Positions 7,184 through 11,979 of a DNA stretch of 27,675 nt are shown piece after piece. Numbering within the stretch: position 1 is the stretch's first letter; each line of letters starts with the position of its first letter. The notes beneath the pieces were generated by a model that was not told where the DNA came from, did no database searches, and saw only the letters and a program-made list of their open reading frames with translations. The stretch is from positions 1 to 27,675 of the forward strand of contig CBIMKN010000001.1 in assembly GCA_966244515.1 (NCBI GenBank), given 5' to 3'. A program made the translations under genes and the position numbers. Source of the stretch: an uncultured bacterium (GTDB lineage: Bacteria > Patescibacteriota > Minisyncoccia > Phycocordibacterales > UBA2100).

Positions 7184-7189
7184 ATTATA
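7184..7189 (-). promoter_or_regulatory. -10 box TATAAT for dedA, overlapping the glyA stop codon
   Basis: Minus strand gTATAATcaggattcATG; the TAA is the glyA stop. Confidence 0.65.
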
Positions 7190-8456
7190 CGAAGGATTCA
7201 GGGATAGGGAACTTCTTGCAGAGCTTGCGCACATCCTCGCGCACGCGCTTGTGCACCTTCTTGTCGCTCTTGTTCTTGAGCGTCTCGATCATGAGCTCGG
7301 CGACTTTCGCGCACTCTTTTTCCTTGAATCCGCGCGTCGTGATAGCAGGAGTGCCGAAGCGGATACCGGAAGGATCCATCGGCTTTCGCGTATCGTCGGC
7401 GATCGAATTCTTGTTGAGCGTCATACCGACCTCATCGAGAAGCGTTTCGGCCTCCATGCCGGAGATGCCGAGGCTGCTCCAGACGTCGGCAAGAATGAGG
7501 TGATTGCTCGTACCGCCCGTGATCATGCGCACGCCATTTTGCGCGAATACCTTCTCCATGGCCTTCGCATTTTTGAGTATCTGCTTGGCGTAGAGCCTGA
7601 ATTTCGGAGAGAGCGCTTCGCCGAAGCACACAGCCTTTGCGGCGACGTTGTGCATGAGCGGTCCACCCTGGAGACCCGGGAAGATGCTCTTATCGATTCT
7701 CTTGGCGAATTCTGCGTCTTCGCGCGTGAGTATCATGCCGCCGCGCGGTCCCCGCAGCGTCTTATGCGTCGTGGTCGTCATGATGTCGAAACCGTGGTCG
7801 AAGGGGTTGCGCACCGCCTTTCCCGCGATGAGGCCGGCGATGTGCGCGATGTCCATGACCGCGTATGCGCCCACTTCTCGCGCGATCGAGACGAACTTGT
7901 CGTAGTCGAGCTCGCGAGGGTATGCGGAGTAGCCCGCAAGCAGTATTTTCGGCTTCTCTTTTTTTGCGACAGCGCGCATTTCGTCGTAGTCGATCTCGCC
8001 GGTCGCCACGTCTTTCATCTTGTAGCGCACGAATCGGAAGATCTTGGTGAGGTAGGTGACGGGGTGGCCGTGCGTGAGGTGACCTCCGTGCGAGAGATCC
8101 ATGCCAAGCACCGTGTCTCCCGGCTCGAGGAGTGCGAAATACATGCCGATATTAGCCGGCGCACCCGCATGCGGCTGTACGTTGGCGAACTTCGCGCCGA
8201 AGAGCTTCTTTGCGCGCTCGATGGCGATCATCTCCACCTCGTCGGTGAACTTCTGGCCGCCGTAGTAGCGCTTGCCGGGGTAGCCCTCTGAGTATTTGTT
8301 GGTGAGCGACGAGGCATTGGCTTCGCGCACGGCGCGCGAGACGTAGTTTTCCGACGGGATCAATTCGAGCCCCTCTGCCTGGCGAGTCTCTTCGCCGGTG
8401 ATCGCTGCGTACACTTTCTTGTCCTGCTTCTTGATATGTGGGTACAACTCTTTCAT
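7185..8456 (-). CDS. glyA: Serine hydroxymethyltransferase
   Basis: LELIPSENY, NKYSEGYPGKRYYGG, GGHLTHG, TTTHKTLRGPRGG (PLP Lys), SGIRFGT. Confidence 0.98.
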   Translation of the reverse strand: MKELYPHIKKQDKKVYAAITGEETRQAEGLELIPSENYVSRAVREANASSLTNKYSEGYPGKRYYGGQKFTDEVEMIAIERAKKLFGAKFANVQPHAGAPANIGMYFALLEPGDTVLGMDLSHGGHLTHGHPVTYLTKIFRFVRYKMKDVATGEIDYDEMRAVAKKEKPKILLAGYSAYPRELDYDKFVSIAREVGAYAVMDIAHIAGLIAGKAVRNPFDHGFDIMTTTTHKTLRGPRGGMILTREDAEFAKRIDKSIFPGLQGGPLMHNVAAKAVCFGEALSPKFRLYAKQILKNAKAMEKVFAQNGVRMITGGTSNHLILADVWSSLGISGMEAETLLDEVGMTLNKNSIADDTRKPMDPSGIRFGTPAITTRGFKEKECAKVAELMIETLKNKSDKKVHKRVREDVRKLCKKFPIPESFV

Positions 8457-8501: not shown

Positions 8502-9512
8502 CTATGCTTTGCTCGGCTTTTTCTCTTCGTAGCCGCCGATGTTGGCGATCTCGGCTTTCAGCGACGGGTGCGACTGGTAGTTTTCGAGCGTAATGTCCTC
8601 CTGCGTGAAGTCATCGATATTGCCGACGGCAGGATTCAATTTCACCGTGGGGAAGGGCATCGGCTCGCGCGCGATCTGTTCCTTCACCTGGTCGAAGTGG
8701 TTGGAATAAATGTGGACGTCGCCGAGCGTGTGCACGAATTCTCCCGGCGGGATCTTGGTAACTTGCGAGACCATGAGGAGAAGCAGCGAGTAGCTGGCGA
8801 TGTTGAAGGGGACGCCGAGGAAGAGATCGCCCGAGCGCTGGTAGAGCCCCAAGTTCAACTTTCCGTTCATGACCTGGAACTGCATCATGGTGTGGCAAAA
8901 AGGCGGTACGTGCGACTTCTGGCCTTCAGACGCCATCTCGTAGATGAAATCTGGATTCCATGCGCTCACGACGTATGACTTTCGATCGGGTTTTTTCTTG
9001 AGCCCCTCGATCACCCATGCGAGCTGATCGATCTCGCGCCCGTCTTTGGCGGGCCAGCGGCGCCACATGCGGCCGTAGATCGTGATGAGATCCCCCCACT
9101 TCACGACGAAAGGATCGCTCGCCGGCAATTCGGTGAGCTTCTTGATGAAGTCAGCCTGCGAATCGAACTCCTTGGTGTCGGACCACATTTGGTAGTGCTT
9201 CCACGCCCACTCGTCCCAGATGTGATTGTTCGCATCAAGCAGCGGCTTGATGTTGGAACTGCCGGAGAGGAACCAGAGGAGCTCGGTCACGATGCCCCGC
9301 CAGAATGTCTTTTTCGTGGTGAGGAGCGGGAAGCCGTCGCTGAGGTCGAAGCGCATCTGGCGGCCGAATACGGAGCGTATGAAGGGCGGCTCTTCGCCCT
9401 TCTTTTTGTACTCTTCGAGAACGACGTCGTTGAAGAACAGCGACTTATCCGCACCGTTGTCCAGAATGTCCTGACAGAGATCGAGATACTGGTATTCCGG
9501 GTGCTTTTTCAT
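8502..9512 (-). CDS. thyA: Thymidylate synthase (ThyA), divergent phosphate-binding site
   Basis: FPLLTTKK, IWDEWA, VSAWNP, PFCH (catalytic Cys), YQRSGD, LGVPFNIASY, DVHIYSNH. Confidence 0.93.
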   Translation of the reverse strand: MKKHPEYQYLDLCQDILDNGADKSLFFNDVVLEEYKKKGEEPPFIRSVFGRQMRFDLSDGFPLLTTKKTFWRGIVTELLWFLSGSSNIKPLLDANNHIWDEWAWKHYQMWSDTKEFDSQADFIKKLTELPASDPFVVKWGDLITIYGRMWRRWPAKDGREIDQLAWVIEGLKKKPDRKSYVVSAWNPDFIYEMASEGQKSHVPPFCHTMMQFQVMNGKLNLGLYQRSGDLFLGVPFNIASYSLLLLMVSQVTKIPPGEFVHTLGDVHIYSNHFDQVKEQIAREPMPFPTVKLNPAVGNIDDFTQEDITLENYQSHPSLKAEIANIGGYEEKKPSKA

Positions 9513-9513
9513 A

Positions 9514-10074
9514 TCATTTGCTCGCTATTCTTTTCTTCTTTGCGGGAACGAAGTGCTTCCAATTGTCTTTCGCGAAGCGGCCGACTTTCTTGTAGCTCTG
9601 GCTCGGCGGCGAGGAGAGCTTTGAGAAGGTGATCTGCGCGATCTCCATGCCCGGGCGCAGGATGATCGGGATGTTGCTCTGGTTGGTGATCTCGAAGGTG
9701 ATGTTGAGGAAGTGCCCGGGATTGATGATGCCGGCGGTGTTGTGGATCATGAGGCCGATGCGCGCGAGCGACGATTTGCCGCCGACTTGTATGAGGTAGT
9801 GGTCAGAACCGAAGAACTCTTTCGAGAGGCCGAGCACGGAGACGCCGGGGTGGAGCACGAACTCCTCGCCATCTTTGATCATTTTCTCGGTGGTCTTGGC
9901 GTAGATCTTGTGGGCAGGGTCTACGAAGTGCGTCGAGCTTGCGTCGTTCTCGACGAATTTATTGCCGAGAAGAATGTCGTACGAAGCGGGCTGGAGACGA
10001 GACGGATCGAACGGCTGGAGAGTGATCTCGCCATCTTTCACTGCTTTTTTGATGTCTACGTCGGATAGGAACAT
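9514..10074 (-). CDS. dcd: dCTP deaminase (trimeric dUTPase superfamily)
   Basis: LSD, LQPASYD, GKSSLARIG, IHNTAG, ITFEITN, PGMEIAQITF. Confidence 0.88.
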   Translation of the reverse strand: MFLSDVDIKKAVKDGEITLQPFDPSRLQPASYDILLGNKFVENDASSTHFVDPAHKIYAKTTEKMIKDGEEFVLHPGVSVLGLSKEFFGSDHYLIQVGGKSSLARIGLMIHNTAGIINPGHFLNITFEITNQSNIPIILRPGMEIAQITFSKLSSPPSQSYKKVGRFAKDNWKHFVPAKKKRIASK

Positions 10075-10079
10075 AGGGG

Positions 10080-10754
10080 TTAGTCTACATTAAATATTTT
10101 GTCGGTCCCGTAGTACTCGGGCCAGTGCGCATTGTAAAAGGAGAACATACGCTCAAGTCTGTCCTGTGGGAGCTCCTCGATGCCGAGCTTCTGCATGAAG
10201 GCGTCGATATCCGCCCTTGCCTCGGAGAGTTTCGATTCGTCGTCGACGACGCGCTCGATCTCGGCCAGGTATCCATAGCCTGCGTTCTTGTCGAGGCAGA
10301 CATTGAGCCCGCCCGCTCTGTACTCCTCTCGCTCGCGCGACCACTTTGCCTGGTACGTGAAGCCGGCGGAGAGGACGAGCTCGTCGAGCTCGAGGATGCC
10401 AAGCGGCACCTGCTCTTCGAACTCCATGCGGCTCACGCCGTTGGCGCTGGTATCCTCGCCGACGGATGCTTTCACGACGAGGAGCACGATGTTGTCTTTG
10501 TCGCGCGTGCGCACGGAGAAGCTCTTTGCGCGCGCCGCGAGATCTTTCAGCTTTGCCTGCGCATCGGGACTGAGGTGCGGCGCCATCACGTCTGCCAATT
10601 TCTCGATCGTACCGCCTTCGAAGTAGTGGTTGAGCTGGCGATTCCTGTCGACGAGCTGGCAGTCCGGGTCGAGGTCTTTCAGTGCGCTCCTTAGCATGTC
10701 GGCGCGCTCTGCGCTTCCTAAGAGAGACTTCACCTCGACTTCGTAGTTCTGCAT
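10080..10754 (-). CDS. CYTH / triphosphate tunnel metalloenzyme (CyaB-like fold)
   Basis: N-terminal EVEVK (ExExK), QLNHYF, VRTR, RMEFE, REREEY, CLD...YLAEIE. Confidence 0.85.
   Translation of the reverse strand: MQNYEVEVKSLLGSAERADMLRSALKDLDPDCQLVDRNRQLNHYFEGGTIEKLADVMAPHLSPDAQAKLKDLAARAKSFSVRTRDKDNIVLLVVKASVGEDTSANGVSRMEFEEQVPLGILELDELVLSAGFTYQAKWSREREEYRAGGLNVCLDKNAGYGYLAEIERVVDDESKLSEARADIDAFMQKLGIEELPQDRLERMFSFYNAHWPEYYGTDKIFNVD
10082..10087 (-). promoter_or_regulatory. -10 box TAGACT for dcd, inside the CYTH 3' end
   Basis: 7 nt before ATG 10074. Confidence 0.4.
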
Positions 10755-10762
10755 GGACGGTC

Positions 10763-10768
10763 ATTATA
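10763..10768 (-). promoter_or_regulatory. -10 box TATAAT for the CYTH gene
   Basis: Perfect TATAAT 8 nt before ATG 10754. Confidence 0.65.
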
Positions 10769-10836
10769 GCTCGCGGTCCGCGCCGTCTAGTCTTGCGCGC
10801 GGTGGGATATGTGGCAGGGTGCAGAGAGGAAGGGAG

Positions 10837-11415
10837 ATGACGATGATCGACATCCTGGTTCCCAAGATATGGGTCAGTACGGACAAGATATGGACAGGGG
10901 AGCCGGATAGGGTGCTCCTGTTCTTCGCCGGTCCGGTGAGGGGCGGCGGGGATTGGCAGAAAGACGGCTGTGATCTGGTCTCGGTGCATCCGGCGCTGAA
11001 GAACTCGGTGATCGTGACGCCGACGCGCTGGGATCGTACGCACGCTCTTGCTCCGCGATTCATGCACGGGCCGACGACGTGCTTTCCCCGCCAGCTCAAC
11101 TACGAACGCCACTACCTAGCGCTTGCGGGACTCGATGAGAGGCCGGGGTGTATCCTCTTCTGGCTCCGCTGCGAGAGCGAGGAGGATCCGCATCCGGGAC
11201 CCGAGCCGTATTCGATGGATACGCGCGGCGAGCTTGCGGAGTGGCGCATGCGCATGAAATTCCAGAATGCGCGCGTTGTCATCGGCGCAGAGCCCGACTA
11301 CCACGGGCTCAGTCAGATCCAGCGCAACTACAGCCTCGAACTCGGGTACGAATTTCCGATCTACCCGACGCTCGAAGCCACGATCGATGCGGCAGCGCGG
11401 ATGGCGTATCGCTGA
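10837..11415 (+). CDS. Nucleoside 2-deoxyribosyltransferase-like / nucleotide N-glycosidase-like protein
   Basis: LFFAGPVRGGGDWQ, QLNYERHYL, ILFWL, TRGELAEW (putative nucleophile Glu). Start set to ATG 10837 after a purine-rich SD (gagaggaagggag), 192 aa. Confidence 0.7.
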   Translation: MTMIDILVPKIWVSTDKIWTGEPDRVLLFFAGPVRGGGDWQKDGCDLVSVHPALKNSVIVTPTRWDRTHALAPRFMHGPTTCFPRQLNYERHYLALAGLDERPGCILFWLRCESEEDPHPGPEPYSMDTRGELAEWRMRMKFQNARVVIGAEPDYHGLSQIQRNYSLELGYEFPIYPTLEATIDAAARMAYR

Positions 11416-11472: not shown

Positions 11473-11979
11473 ATGAATGGAGCGAAAGTCGTCGCTGTCG
11501 CCGCGATCGGCAAGAACAGGGAATTGGGAAAGGGCAACGAATTGCTCTGGCACATCCCCGCAGACCTCAAGCGGTTCAAGGAGCTCACGGCGGGCCACCC
11601 GATCGTGCTCGGCCGCAAAACATTTGAATCCATCGTCGGCTATTTGGGTAAGCCGCTGCCGGGGCGGCAGAACATCGTTGTGACGCGCGACAGCAATTGG
11701 TCGTACGAGGGTGTCCTCGTCGCTGCCTCGGTCGAAGAAGCGATCGCGAAAGGTAAGGAATTGGATGGAGAACAGGTCTCGATCGGCGGCGGGGCGCAGA
11801 TATATCAGGCGGCGCTCCCGTACACCGATGAACTCCGCCTCACCGTGATCGACGATAGCAAGGAGGCGGACTCATTCTTTCCTCCGTATGAACAAGAGTT
11901 CACAAAAGTCTTGGGCGAAGAGTCGCGCGAACACGACGGTCTGCGGTATCGGTGGGTGGATTTGGCGAGGGGAGAGTGA
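11473..11979 (+). CDS. folA: Dihydrofolate reductase
   Basis: AIGKNRELG, LLWHIPADLKRFK, LGRKTFES, PLPGRQNIV, IGGGAQIY, DSFFP. Confidence 0.97.
   Translation: MNGAKVVAVAAIGKNRELGKGNELLWHIPADLKRFKELTAGHPIVLGRKTFESIVGYLGKPLPGRQNIVVTRDSNWSYEGVLVAASVEEAIAKGKELDGEQVSIGGGAQIYQAALPYTDELRLTVIDDSKEADSFFPPYEQEFTKVLGEESREHDGLRYRWVDLARGE

Follow-up and report, generated by a model that had tools for sequence, protein, structure and literature searches.

Thymidylate synthase (TS) is among the most conserved and best studied enzymes. Two of its textbook features, the four-arginine clamp on the substrate phosphate and the closing C-terminus, also serve as anchors for drug design. The gene described here raises the question whether a protein in which both features have been rebuilt can still be a TS. 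It is the thyA gene of a 27,675-nt stretch of DNA (contig CBIMKN010000001.1 of assembly GCA_966244515.1; this whole stretch is called the window below) from an uncultured bacterium of the Patescibacteriota, where it occupies the open reading frame (ORF) at 8502-9512 on the minus strand. The coding sequence comprises 336 aa (protein P0001) plus a stop codon at 8502-8504. We find that P0001 very probably stands for a distinct ThyA subfamily, which is widespread in Patescibacteria (Candidate Phyla Radiation, CPR) and includes at least one archaeal lineage labelled Nanoarchaeia. We further predict that P0001 is a working folate-dependent TS, converting deoxyuridine monophosphate (dUMP) and 5,10-methylene-tetrahydrofolate (THF) to thymidine monophosphate (dTMP) and dihydrofolate, a function that we regard as likely.

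The family assignment itself is clear. Residues 8-323 of P0001 match PF00303 (Thymidylat_synt) with an E value of 1.4e-94 and 316.7 bits against a cut-off of 24.3, and the protein exceeds the cut-offs of two NCBIfam equivalogs, TIGR03284 (351.3 bits, cut-off 108) and NF002496 (343.9 bits, cut-off 325). Neither Pfam nor NCBIfam contains a separate model for the variant subfamily. An AlphaFold2 model of the apo monomer, calculated from a 103-sequence alignment, reached a mean predicted local distance difference test score (pLDDT) of 92.7. The best matches in sequence and fold were the ThyA proteins of L. casei and E. faecalis (PDB 1lca, 3uwl), with 285 bits, 43-48% identity and a template modelling (TM) score of 0.83; the Foldseek E value to L. 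casei TS was 1e-37. The GC content of thyA, about 56-58%, is that of the remaining window. Its start codon lies 1 nt past the stop codon of dcd, which is a spacing of translational coupling, and the N-terminus fits the family consensus.

We compared P0001 residue by residue with solved TS chains and with E. coli ThyA from MG1655, fixing the register by a Lys common to all TS (K18 in E. coli, K23 in P0001); E. coli numbers are given in brackets below. The catalytic set is intact in the alignment: C206 (C146), H207 (H147), E77 (E58) and D229 (D169). The same applies to W99/W102 (W80/W83), Tyr94 and three further elements on the minus strand. These are the phosphate-binding pair R226-S227 (R166-S167) at 8832..8837, invariant in 91/91 subfamily members and in all 150 representatives described below; N237 (N177) at 8802..8804, the Asn that specifies dUMP, which is invariant in the 91-member alignment and is not the Asp of deoxycytidine monophosphate (dCMP) hydroxymethylases; and H267-I-Y269 (H207/Y209) at 8706..8714, which bind the 3'-OH and are likewise invariant. 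The kept catalytic residues are also conserved across the subfamily.

The phosphate site looks different. Arg21, which binds the phosphate in E. coli TS, corresponds to F26 in P0001 (9435..9437, minus strand), as given by the shared Lys and the alignments. In place of S125-R126-R127, which contain the phosphate arginines of the partner subunit, it has R177-K178-S179 (8976..8984, minus strand). The DRTGTGT loop is replaced by residues 24-45 (9378..9443, minus strand), a segment with a 14-aa insertion that forms a helix at residues 29-37 in the model and contains a Y-x-x-K/R-G-E motif. An initial annotation, made from the sequence without database searches, had already described a loop about 14 aa longer with no Arg at the equivalent site, the changes from PDSRR to PDRKS and from GDLGPVYG to GDLITIYG, and an intact Cys, QRS Arg, PFN Asn and H-x-Y; all of this is borne out by the alignments, with Tyr94 kept within the altered GDLITIYG segment.

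Relatives with the same changes are numerous. A word-indexed search returned more than 120 clusters at 82-89% identity to P0001, the named ones being Paceibacterota, Kaiserbacteria, Nomurabacteria or Parcubacteria. Relatives were also encoded in 355 stretches of species-representative genomes, and the 80 of these that were retrieved come from many CPR lineages including Moranbacteria, Peribacteria, Absconditabacteria, Microgenomates, Levybacteria and Gottesmanbacteria. In an evenly drawn sample of 401 Patescibacteria genomes, 141 had a ThyA match; about 39 of the matches ran past residue 326 into the C-terminal extension, and the remaining ones stopped at residue 323-324, as canonical enzymes do. 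The subfamily is thus present in about a tenth of the sampled genomes. One genome of this sample, G154, is flagged as unpublished, and no conclusion rests on it.

For a view of the whole family we used the best 150 ThyA matches of an exhaustive HMMER search of 50%-identity representatives. Nine full-length proteins among them have Arg at 125, eight of these with Lys at 126. All nine also carry the C-terminal GG[F/Y] tail and an insertion ahead of the catalytic Cys, and none has a DRTxxG-type loop motif. Neither the Arg125/RK motif nor the GG[F/Y] tail was seen in the approximately 139 other representatives, which are canonical. One of the nine variant clusters holds the Nanoarchaeia-labelled archaeal member and another comes from a cyanobacterial assembly.

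Within an alignment of 91 subfamily members the altered positions are close to invariant. The R21 position is Phe in 84 members, His in 3, Tyr in 3 and Asn in 1; the S125 position is Arg and the D139 position Tyr in all 91; the R126 position is Lys in 88; and the R127 position is Ser in 80, His in 8 and Cys in 2. A C-terminal Gly-Gly is present in 90 of the 91 and is followed by an aromatic residue, Phe in 83 and Tyr in 7. Read from this alignment, the signature consists of F (rarely H, Y or N) at R21, R-K-[S/H] at 125-127, Tyr at D139 and an [I/V]-G-G-[F/Y] end. With the same substitutions present in about 90 relatives, chance can be ruled out as its source. No published description of the subfamily was found in the literature, and no solved structure, phage enzyme or paper was found with the present combination of changes.

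The C-terminal extension of P0001, IGGYEEKKPSKA, is encoded at 8505..8540 on the minus strand and consists of a core I-G-G-Y (GGY at 8529-8537) and, behind it, a variable tail rich in Lys and Glu. The initial annotation had put the chain about 12 aa beyond the usual end, and 12 residues do lie past the canonical C-terminal position. Since 21 of 89 subfamily proteins stop exactly at the aromatic residue of GG[F/Y] and the others carry variable Lys/Glu-rich tails, the conserved part of the extension comprises four residues only, [I/V]-G-G-[F/Y]. The 14-aa loop insertion occurs in 74 of the 91 members, and by its distribution the long replacement loop is a feature of a sub-clade and lies outside the core signature. 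Three more elements had not been mentioned in the initial annotation. Directly ahead of the catalytic Cys there is an insertion of 8 residues (seven plus F205), visible as gaps against E. faecalis and L. casei TS; SEGQKSH..F together with C206 itself spans 8895..8930 on the minus strand. Its residues have a lower pLDDT of 67-83 and are poorly conserved, and Y191 just upstream is invariant. The other two are a conserved N-terminal HPEYQYL motif and an insert of the L. casei type at residues 104-138.

Two groups of relatives show peculiarities of their own. In a cyanobacterial (Crinalium) assembly, a divergent variant-type thyA with RKS, a GGY end and His at the Tyr94 position (L006:6001-7428, plus strand) is directly followed by folA and lies among genes for IS605 OrfB and BstA_C domain proteins, possibly in a mobile element or prophage. 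Two loci labelled Peribacteria, L062 and L075, have an in-frame stop in thyA under translation table 11; in L062 it stands where relatives have Gly (after ...GWVIE). The stops suggest that the two genomes translate TGA as Gly (code 25).

The initial annotation had further proposed that the loss of R21 and the displaced C-terminus co-evolved rather than decayed, and that they mark a distinct subfamily. Both proposals hold up well: the RK motif and GG[F/Y] occur together in 9/9 variant representatives and in 0 of about 139 others, and the changes are nearly invariant in the 91 members, with the two corrections that the loop belongs to a sub-clade and that the core of the extension is four residues long. 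The gene is neither unique nor under apparent relaxed selection. Its signature recurs in about 90 relatives, and the rate of nonsynonymous substitution (dN) was 0.09-0.14 against close relatives and up to 0.32 at 63% identity, with synonymous sites saturated. As the synonymous rate (dS) was not computable by the Nei-Gojobori method for any pair because of this saturation, the comparison of dN with dS is a qualitative one. A tree from all alignment columns has a branch that separates the variants from the other sequences, with a Shimodaira-Hasegawa-like approximate likelihood ratio test (SH-aLRT) support of 99.

What the variant enzyme does was judged from its kept residues and from its genomic surroundings. 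Using the proteins of the window as queries, we searched 89 related loci for the neighbors of the variant thyA. At a distance of up to 5 kb from it they contain dihydrofolate reductase (DHFR) in 78 cases, Dcd in 63, CYTH in 58 and serine hydroxymethyltransferase (SHMT) in 52. The window itself has a folA gene for DHFR at 11473..11979 on the plus strand (PF00186, E 1.1e-45), in a divergent unit, whose product recycles the dihydrofolate made by a true TS; the coupling to DHFR expected of ThyA is therefore seen both here and in the related loci. In loci L006, L009, L011, L012 and L088 folA abuts the variant thyA. Other folA genes from CPR bacteria complement E. coli lacking folA (PMC11974145). 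We regard reductive methylation as the predicted reaction because a TS-like hydroxymethylase would make no dihydrofolate and need no DHFR, yet the DHFR linkage persists. That dUMP is the predicted substrate and dTMP the product is argued from dUTPase and thymidylate kinase (Tmk), which neighbor the variant thyA in some loci. The genome that contains the window (773 kb, 90% complete) has one ThyA, a Tmk and one DHFR, the only one found being this folA; ThyX, thymidine kinase (Tdk), a second ThyA and a stand-alone dUTPase (Dut) were not found in it. Apart from the variant ThyA, no dTMP-forming enzyme was found there.

Several observations weigh against a working TS or against the unity of the subfamily. 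The four-arginine cluster for the dUMP phosphate is incomplete: only R166 is kept, R21 is changed to Phe, R126 to Lys and R127 to Ser, and there is a new Arg at 125. The chain does not stop at the canonical C-terminal segment, whose carboxylate joins in closure, and the apo monomer model has a low pLDDT over residues 321-336. Descriptions of TS usually count the four-arginine cluster and the sealing C-terminal segment among its requirements (PMC6514825), and both are missing here. No characterised member of the subfamily was found in the PDB or in the literature searched. With the genome 90% complete, ThyX, Tdk and Dut are 'not found' rather than proven absent. Finally, when the trait columns are removed from the alignment, the long-branch rows L009, L011 and P0186 wander in the tree with weak support, and the variant label needs 3 changes. 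Since this removal breaks the grouping we do not claim a single origin; the clustering is strong nonetheless.

How such an enzyme could bind and enclose its substrate can be sketched from the conserved changes. In TS, R21 contacts the terminal carboxylate. The dUMP phosphate is held by R21 and R166 together with R126' and R127' of the other subunit, and the C-terminal segment closes the site after cofactor binding (PMC6514825). In the variant, R226 and S227 would hold the phosphate together with two residues of the partner subunit, K178' and the invariant new R177'. R177' lies two residues before the lost R127'; in an extended chain both would point to the same side, so that R177' could rebuild the trans-subunit clamp. 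A latch between R21 and the carboxylate is impossible in the subfamily, and both of its halves have been replaced together; we therefore propose a hydrophobic latch in its place, in which a Gly-Gly hinge would let the terminal Phe or Tyr fold back towards F26. The clamp and latch roles of R177', F26 and GG[F/Y] are put forward here as predictions from the sequence. Two other candidates were rejected. The pair R46 (E. coli L27) and E321 (E. coli P261) was considered as a new ionic latch, and both residues are also present in canonical enzymes; K38 of the loop insertion was considered as a universal substitute for R21, and the insertion is lacking in 17/91 members.

Comparison with known enzymes places these changes in context. 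The L. casei and E. faecalis type shares with the variant the catalytic residues, a 'small domain' insert after the IWDEWA motif and an obligate association with DHFR. It differs in having DRTxTGT with R23, an SRR motif (R178', R179'), no 8-residue insertion ahead of the Cys and an end in ...A-V; the counterparts in the variant are F26, R-K-S and, beyond the usual end, I-G-G-Y with a tail. Canonical ThyA proteins of Patescibacteria (for example P0124/P0295) are about 50-54% identical and resemble the variant in a DHFR gene immediately downstream and a partial insertion ahead of the Cys. In contrast to the variant, they have DRTGVG, PNSRR and an end in ...IAV, and they lie beside dCMP deaminase, dUTPase and Tmk genes and not beside CYTH and Dcd.

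A natural precedent for a reduced arginine cluster exists. TS enzymes of the VAAP clade (Vibrio parahaemolyticus) are active although R127' is lost, with R127' changed to Gly and His147 to Met (PMC6005164). Their Km for dUMP is about 10-20 times that of the enzymes of E. coli, L. casei and most of the TSs tabulated, and their kcat is lower (PMC6005164). The VAAP clade shows that the four-arginine cluster is neither absolutely required nor strictly defining of TS. P0001 does not belong to this clade: VAAP TS keeps R21, R126' and a normal C-terminus and loses H147, whereas in the variant R21 and R127' are lost, position 126 is Lys, R125 is new, H147 is kept and the C-terminus is longer. Laboratory versions of the same changes have been crystallised as well, namely the L. 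casei mutants R23I, R178T and R179T with double mutants (PDB 1bp0, 1bo8, 1bo7, 1bp6, 1bpj) and C-terminal deletion mutants (PDB 1tda; E. coli I264Am, 6cdz), in which R21/R23, R126'/R127' or the C-terminal carboxylate are removed. These engineered lesions are single or double and impair the enzyme (PMC6514825), whereas the changes of the variant come with conserved additions and have been fixed by selection. The additions R125', GG[F/Y] and Y at 139 may compensate for the lost residues. The subfamily may in this way be seen as a natural experiment on how essential R21, the trans-subunit arginines and the C-terminal end are, and it supplies compensating changes that could be put to the test as a set. 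It would justify a separate annotation model and a structural study. Besides enzymologists, it is of interest to those reconstructing the metabolism of CPR and other ultra-small organisms, where such reconstructions are refined by it and where thyA-folA-glyA clusters are under discussion for folate exchange with hosts.

The alternative that survives best, though we consider it unlikely, is that the rebuilt phosphate site serves another substrate, such as deoxyuridine or its di- or triphosphate (dUDP, dUTP), for instance dUTP from Dcd, or channelling in a CYTH-Dcd-ThyA unit. Three of the four phosphate arginines are changed, but the replacement of Arg by Phe and by Ser makes the site less positive, contrary to what di- or triphosphates would call for, and the kept R166 and S167 together with an invariant new Arg speak against a phosphate-free nucleoside. 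The gene content offers such a reading some room: a stand-alone dUTPase was not found in the window's genome, the Asp of the trimeric dUTPase fold is an Asn in the adjacent Dcd, and the variant has CYTH nearby in 58 and Dcd in 63 of the 89 loci. CYTH was not seen next to 5 canonical thyA genes of CPR bacteria, whose neighbors are dUTPase and/or dCMP deaminase instead. In L005 and L011, however, variants lie beside ordinary dUTPases, and in L005 also beside two thymidylate kinases; moreover, the window's genome has Tmk and thymidine kinase was not found in it. A hint of the initial annotation at dUDP, dUTP or deoxyuridine as substrate is thus not supported by the gene context.

The neighboring Dcd bears on this alternative. 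The dcd gene (9514..10074, minus strand; PF22769, TIGR02274) encodes a protein of the deoxycytidine triphosphate (dCTP) deaminase family, the presumed source of deoxyuridine nucleotides. Its segment IINPGHFLN corresponds to I-D-P-G-F/W of dCTP deaminases and trimeric dUTPases, with Asp changed to Asn. Its best solved relative is Dcd of M. tuberculosis (2qxx, E 1.8e-32), which we take to be a bifunctional dCTP deaminase-dUTPase. The Asn form stands beside the variant thyA in at least 29 of the fetched loci, including the distant L007 and L012. One could imagine that a module of CYTH, Dcd(Asn) and variant ThyA uses not free dUMP, but another phosphorylation state of deoxyuridine or channelling by Dcd and CYTH; we hold this to be improbable. 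If it were true, the phosphate site and the extended C-terminus would be adaptations to it, and deoxythymidine triphosphate (dTTP) would be supplied by a route bypassing dUTPase. CYTH may supply the missing dUTP-hydrolysing step.

Highly improbable, in our view, is a non-reductive relative of TS, that is, a dUMP hydroxymethylase or another pyrimidine C5 transferase in which the altered closure would block hydride transfer. The canonical latch is absent in the variant, and C-terminal closure matters for the later steps of TS catalysis (compare the title of PDB entry 1tda). The dCMP hydroxymethylases have Asp in place of Asn177, and hydroxymethylases for dCMP or dUMP yield THF and so do not depend on DHFR. 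In the variant, by contrast, the equivalent Asn237 is invariant and DHFR is linked in 78 of the 89 loci. A hydroxymethylase would also leave the cell with no dTMP source, as no ThyX or second ThyA was found. Tyr94, Glu58, Trp80/83, Asp169 and His147 are kept, and two equivalog cut-offs for thymidylate synthase are exceeded. P0001 therefore does not fit the phage-type dCMP/dUMP hydroxymethylases, and a working TS is the reading that we prefer. A decaying or non-catalytic ThyA remnant has next to nothing in its favor beyond the loss of residues usually called invariant, and it is effectively refuted by conservation, with a signature near-invariant in about 90 relatives, dN far under the saturated dS, and an intact reading frame that occupies an operon position with translational coupling and encodes a high-confidence fold.

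We also considered a phage origin of the gene and rejected it. The best phage matches are canonical, and the enzyme of Bacillus phage BCU4 has no more than a short and unrelated tail. This TS (L095:2974-3864, plus strand) has a canonical DRTGTGT/PDSRR site and the tail GLKEEEK, and genes for a deoxynucleoside monophosphate kinase and DHFR lie downstream of it. Short unrelated tails (GL, GI, GN) are found in a few canonical representatives too.

The window's genes around thyA are arranged as CYTH-dcd-thyA-glyA on the minus strand, with a gene of unknown function and folA divergent from them. The glyA gene for SHMT (7185..8456, minus strand; PF00464, E 7.7e-148) lies 45 nt downstream of thyA in the same operon, and its product supplies 5,10-methylene-THF. 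The CYTH (triphosphate tunnel) protein is encoded at 10080-10754 on the minus strand, 5 nt upstream of dcd, which in turn lies 1 nt upstream of thyA. Upstream of folA, on the plus strand, lies an ORF of 220 aa (10753-11415) that matched nothing in Pfam or NCBIfam at E values up to 0.05, and a homolog of it was found in only one (L014) of the 89 related loci.

Gene order varies among the relatives. On a groundwater contig (L005, protein P0122, in the cluster with the Nanoarchaeia-labelled member) the variant thyA lies beside a dUTPase gene, a DHFR-SHMT fusion and two thymidylate kinase genes; the fusion (L005:3781-5484, minus strand) is one 567-aa product with both DHFR and SHMT domains. L011 has the arrangement dUTPase-DHFR-ThyA. 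A fusion of ThyA with DHFR was considered for L087 and L088 and rejected: in both, thyA stops right after GGF and a separate folA start abuts it. In L087 (3403-4878, plus strand) thyA ends in ...VGGF and the start codon of folA, a GTG, follows 3 nt past the thyA stop. In L088 (4989-6455, plus strand) thyA likewise ends in ...VGGF, the ATG of folA follows the stop without a gap and a thymidylate kinase-like gene lies immediately upstream. These spacings suggest translational coupling of thyA and folA in L087 and L088.

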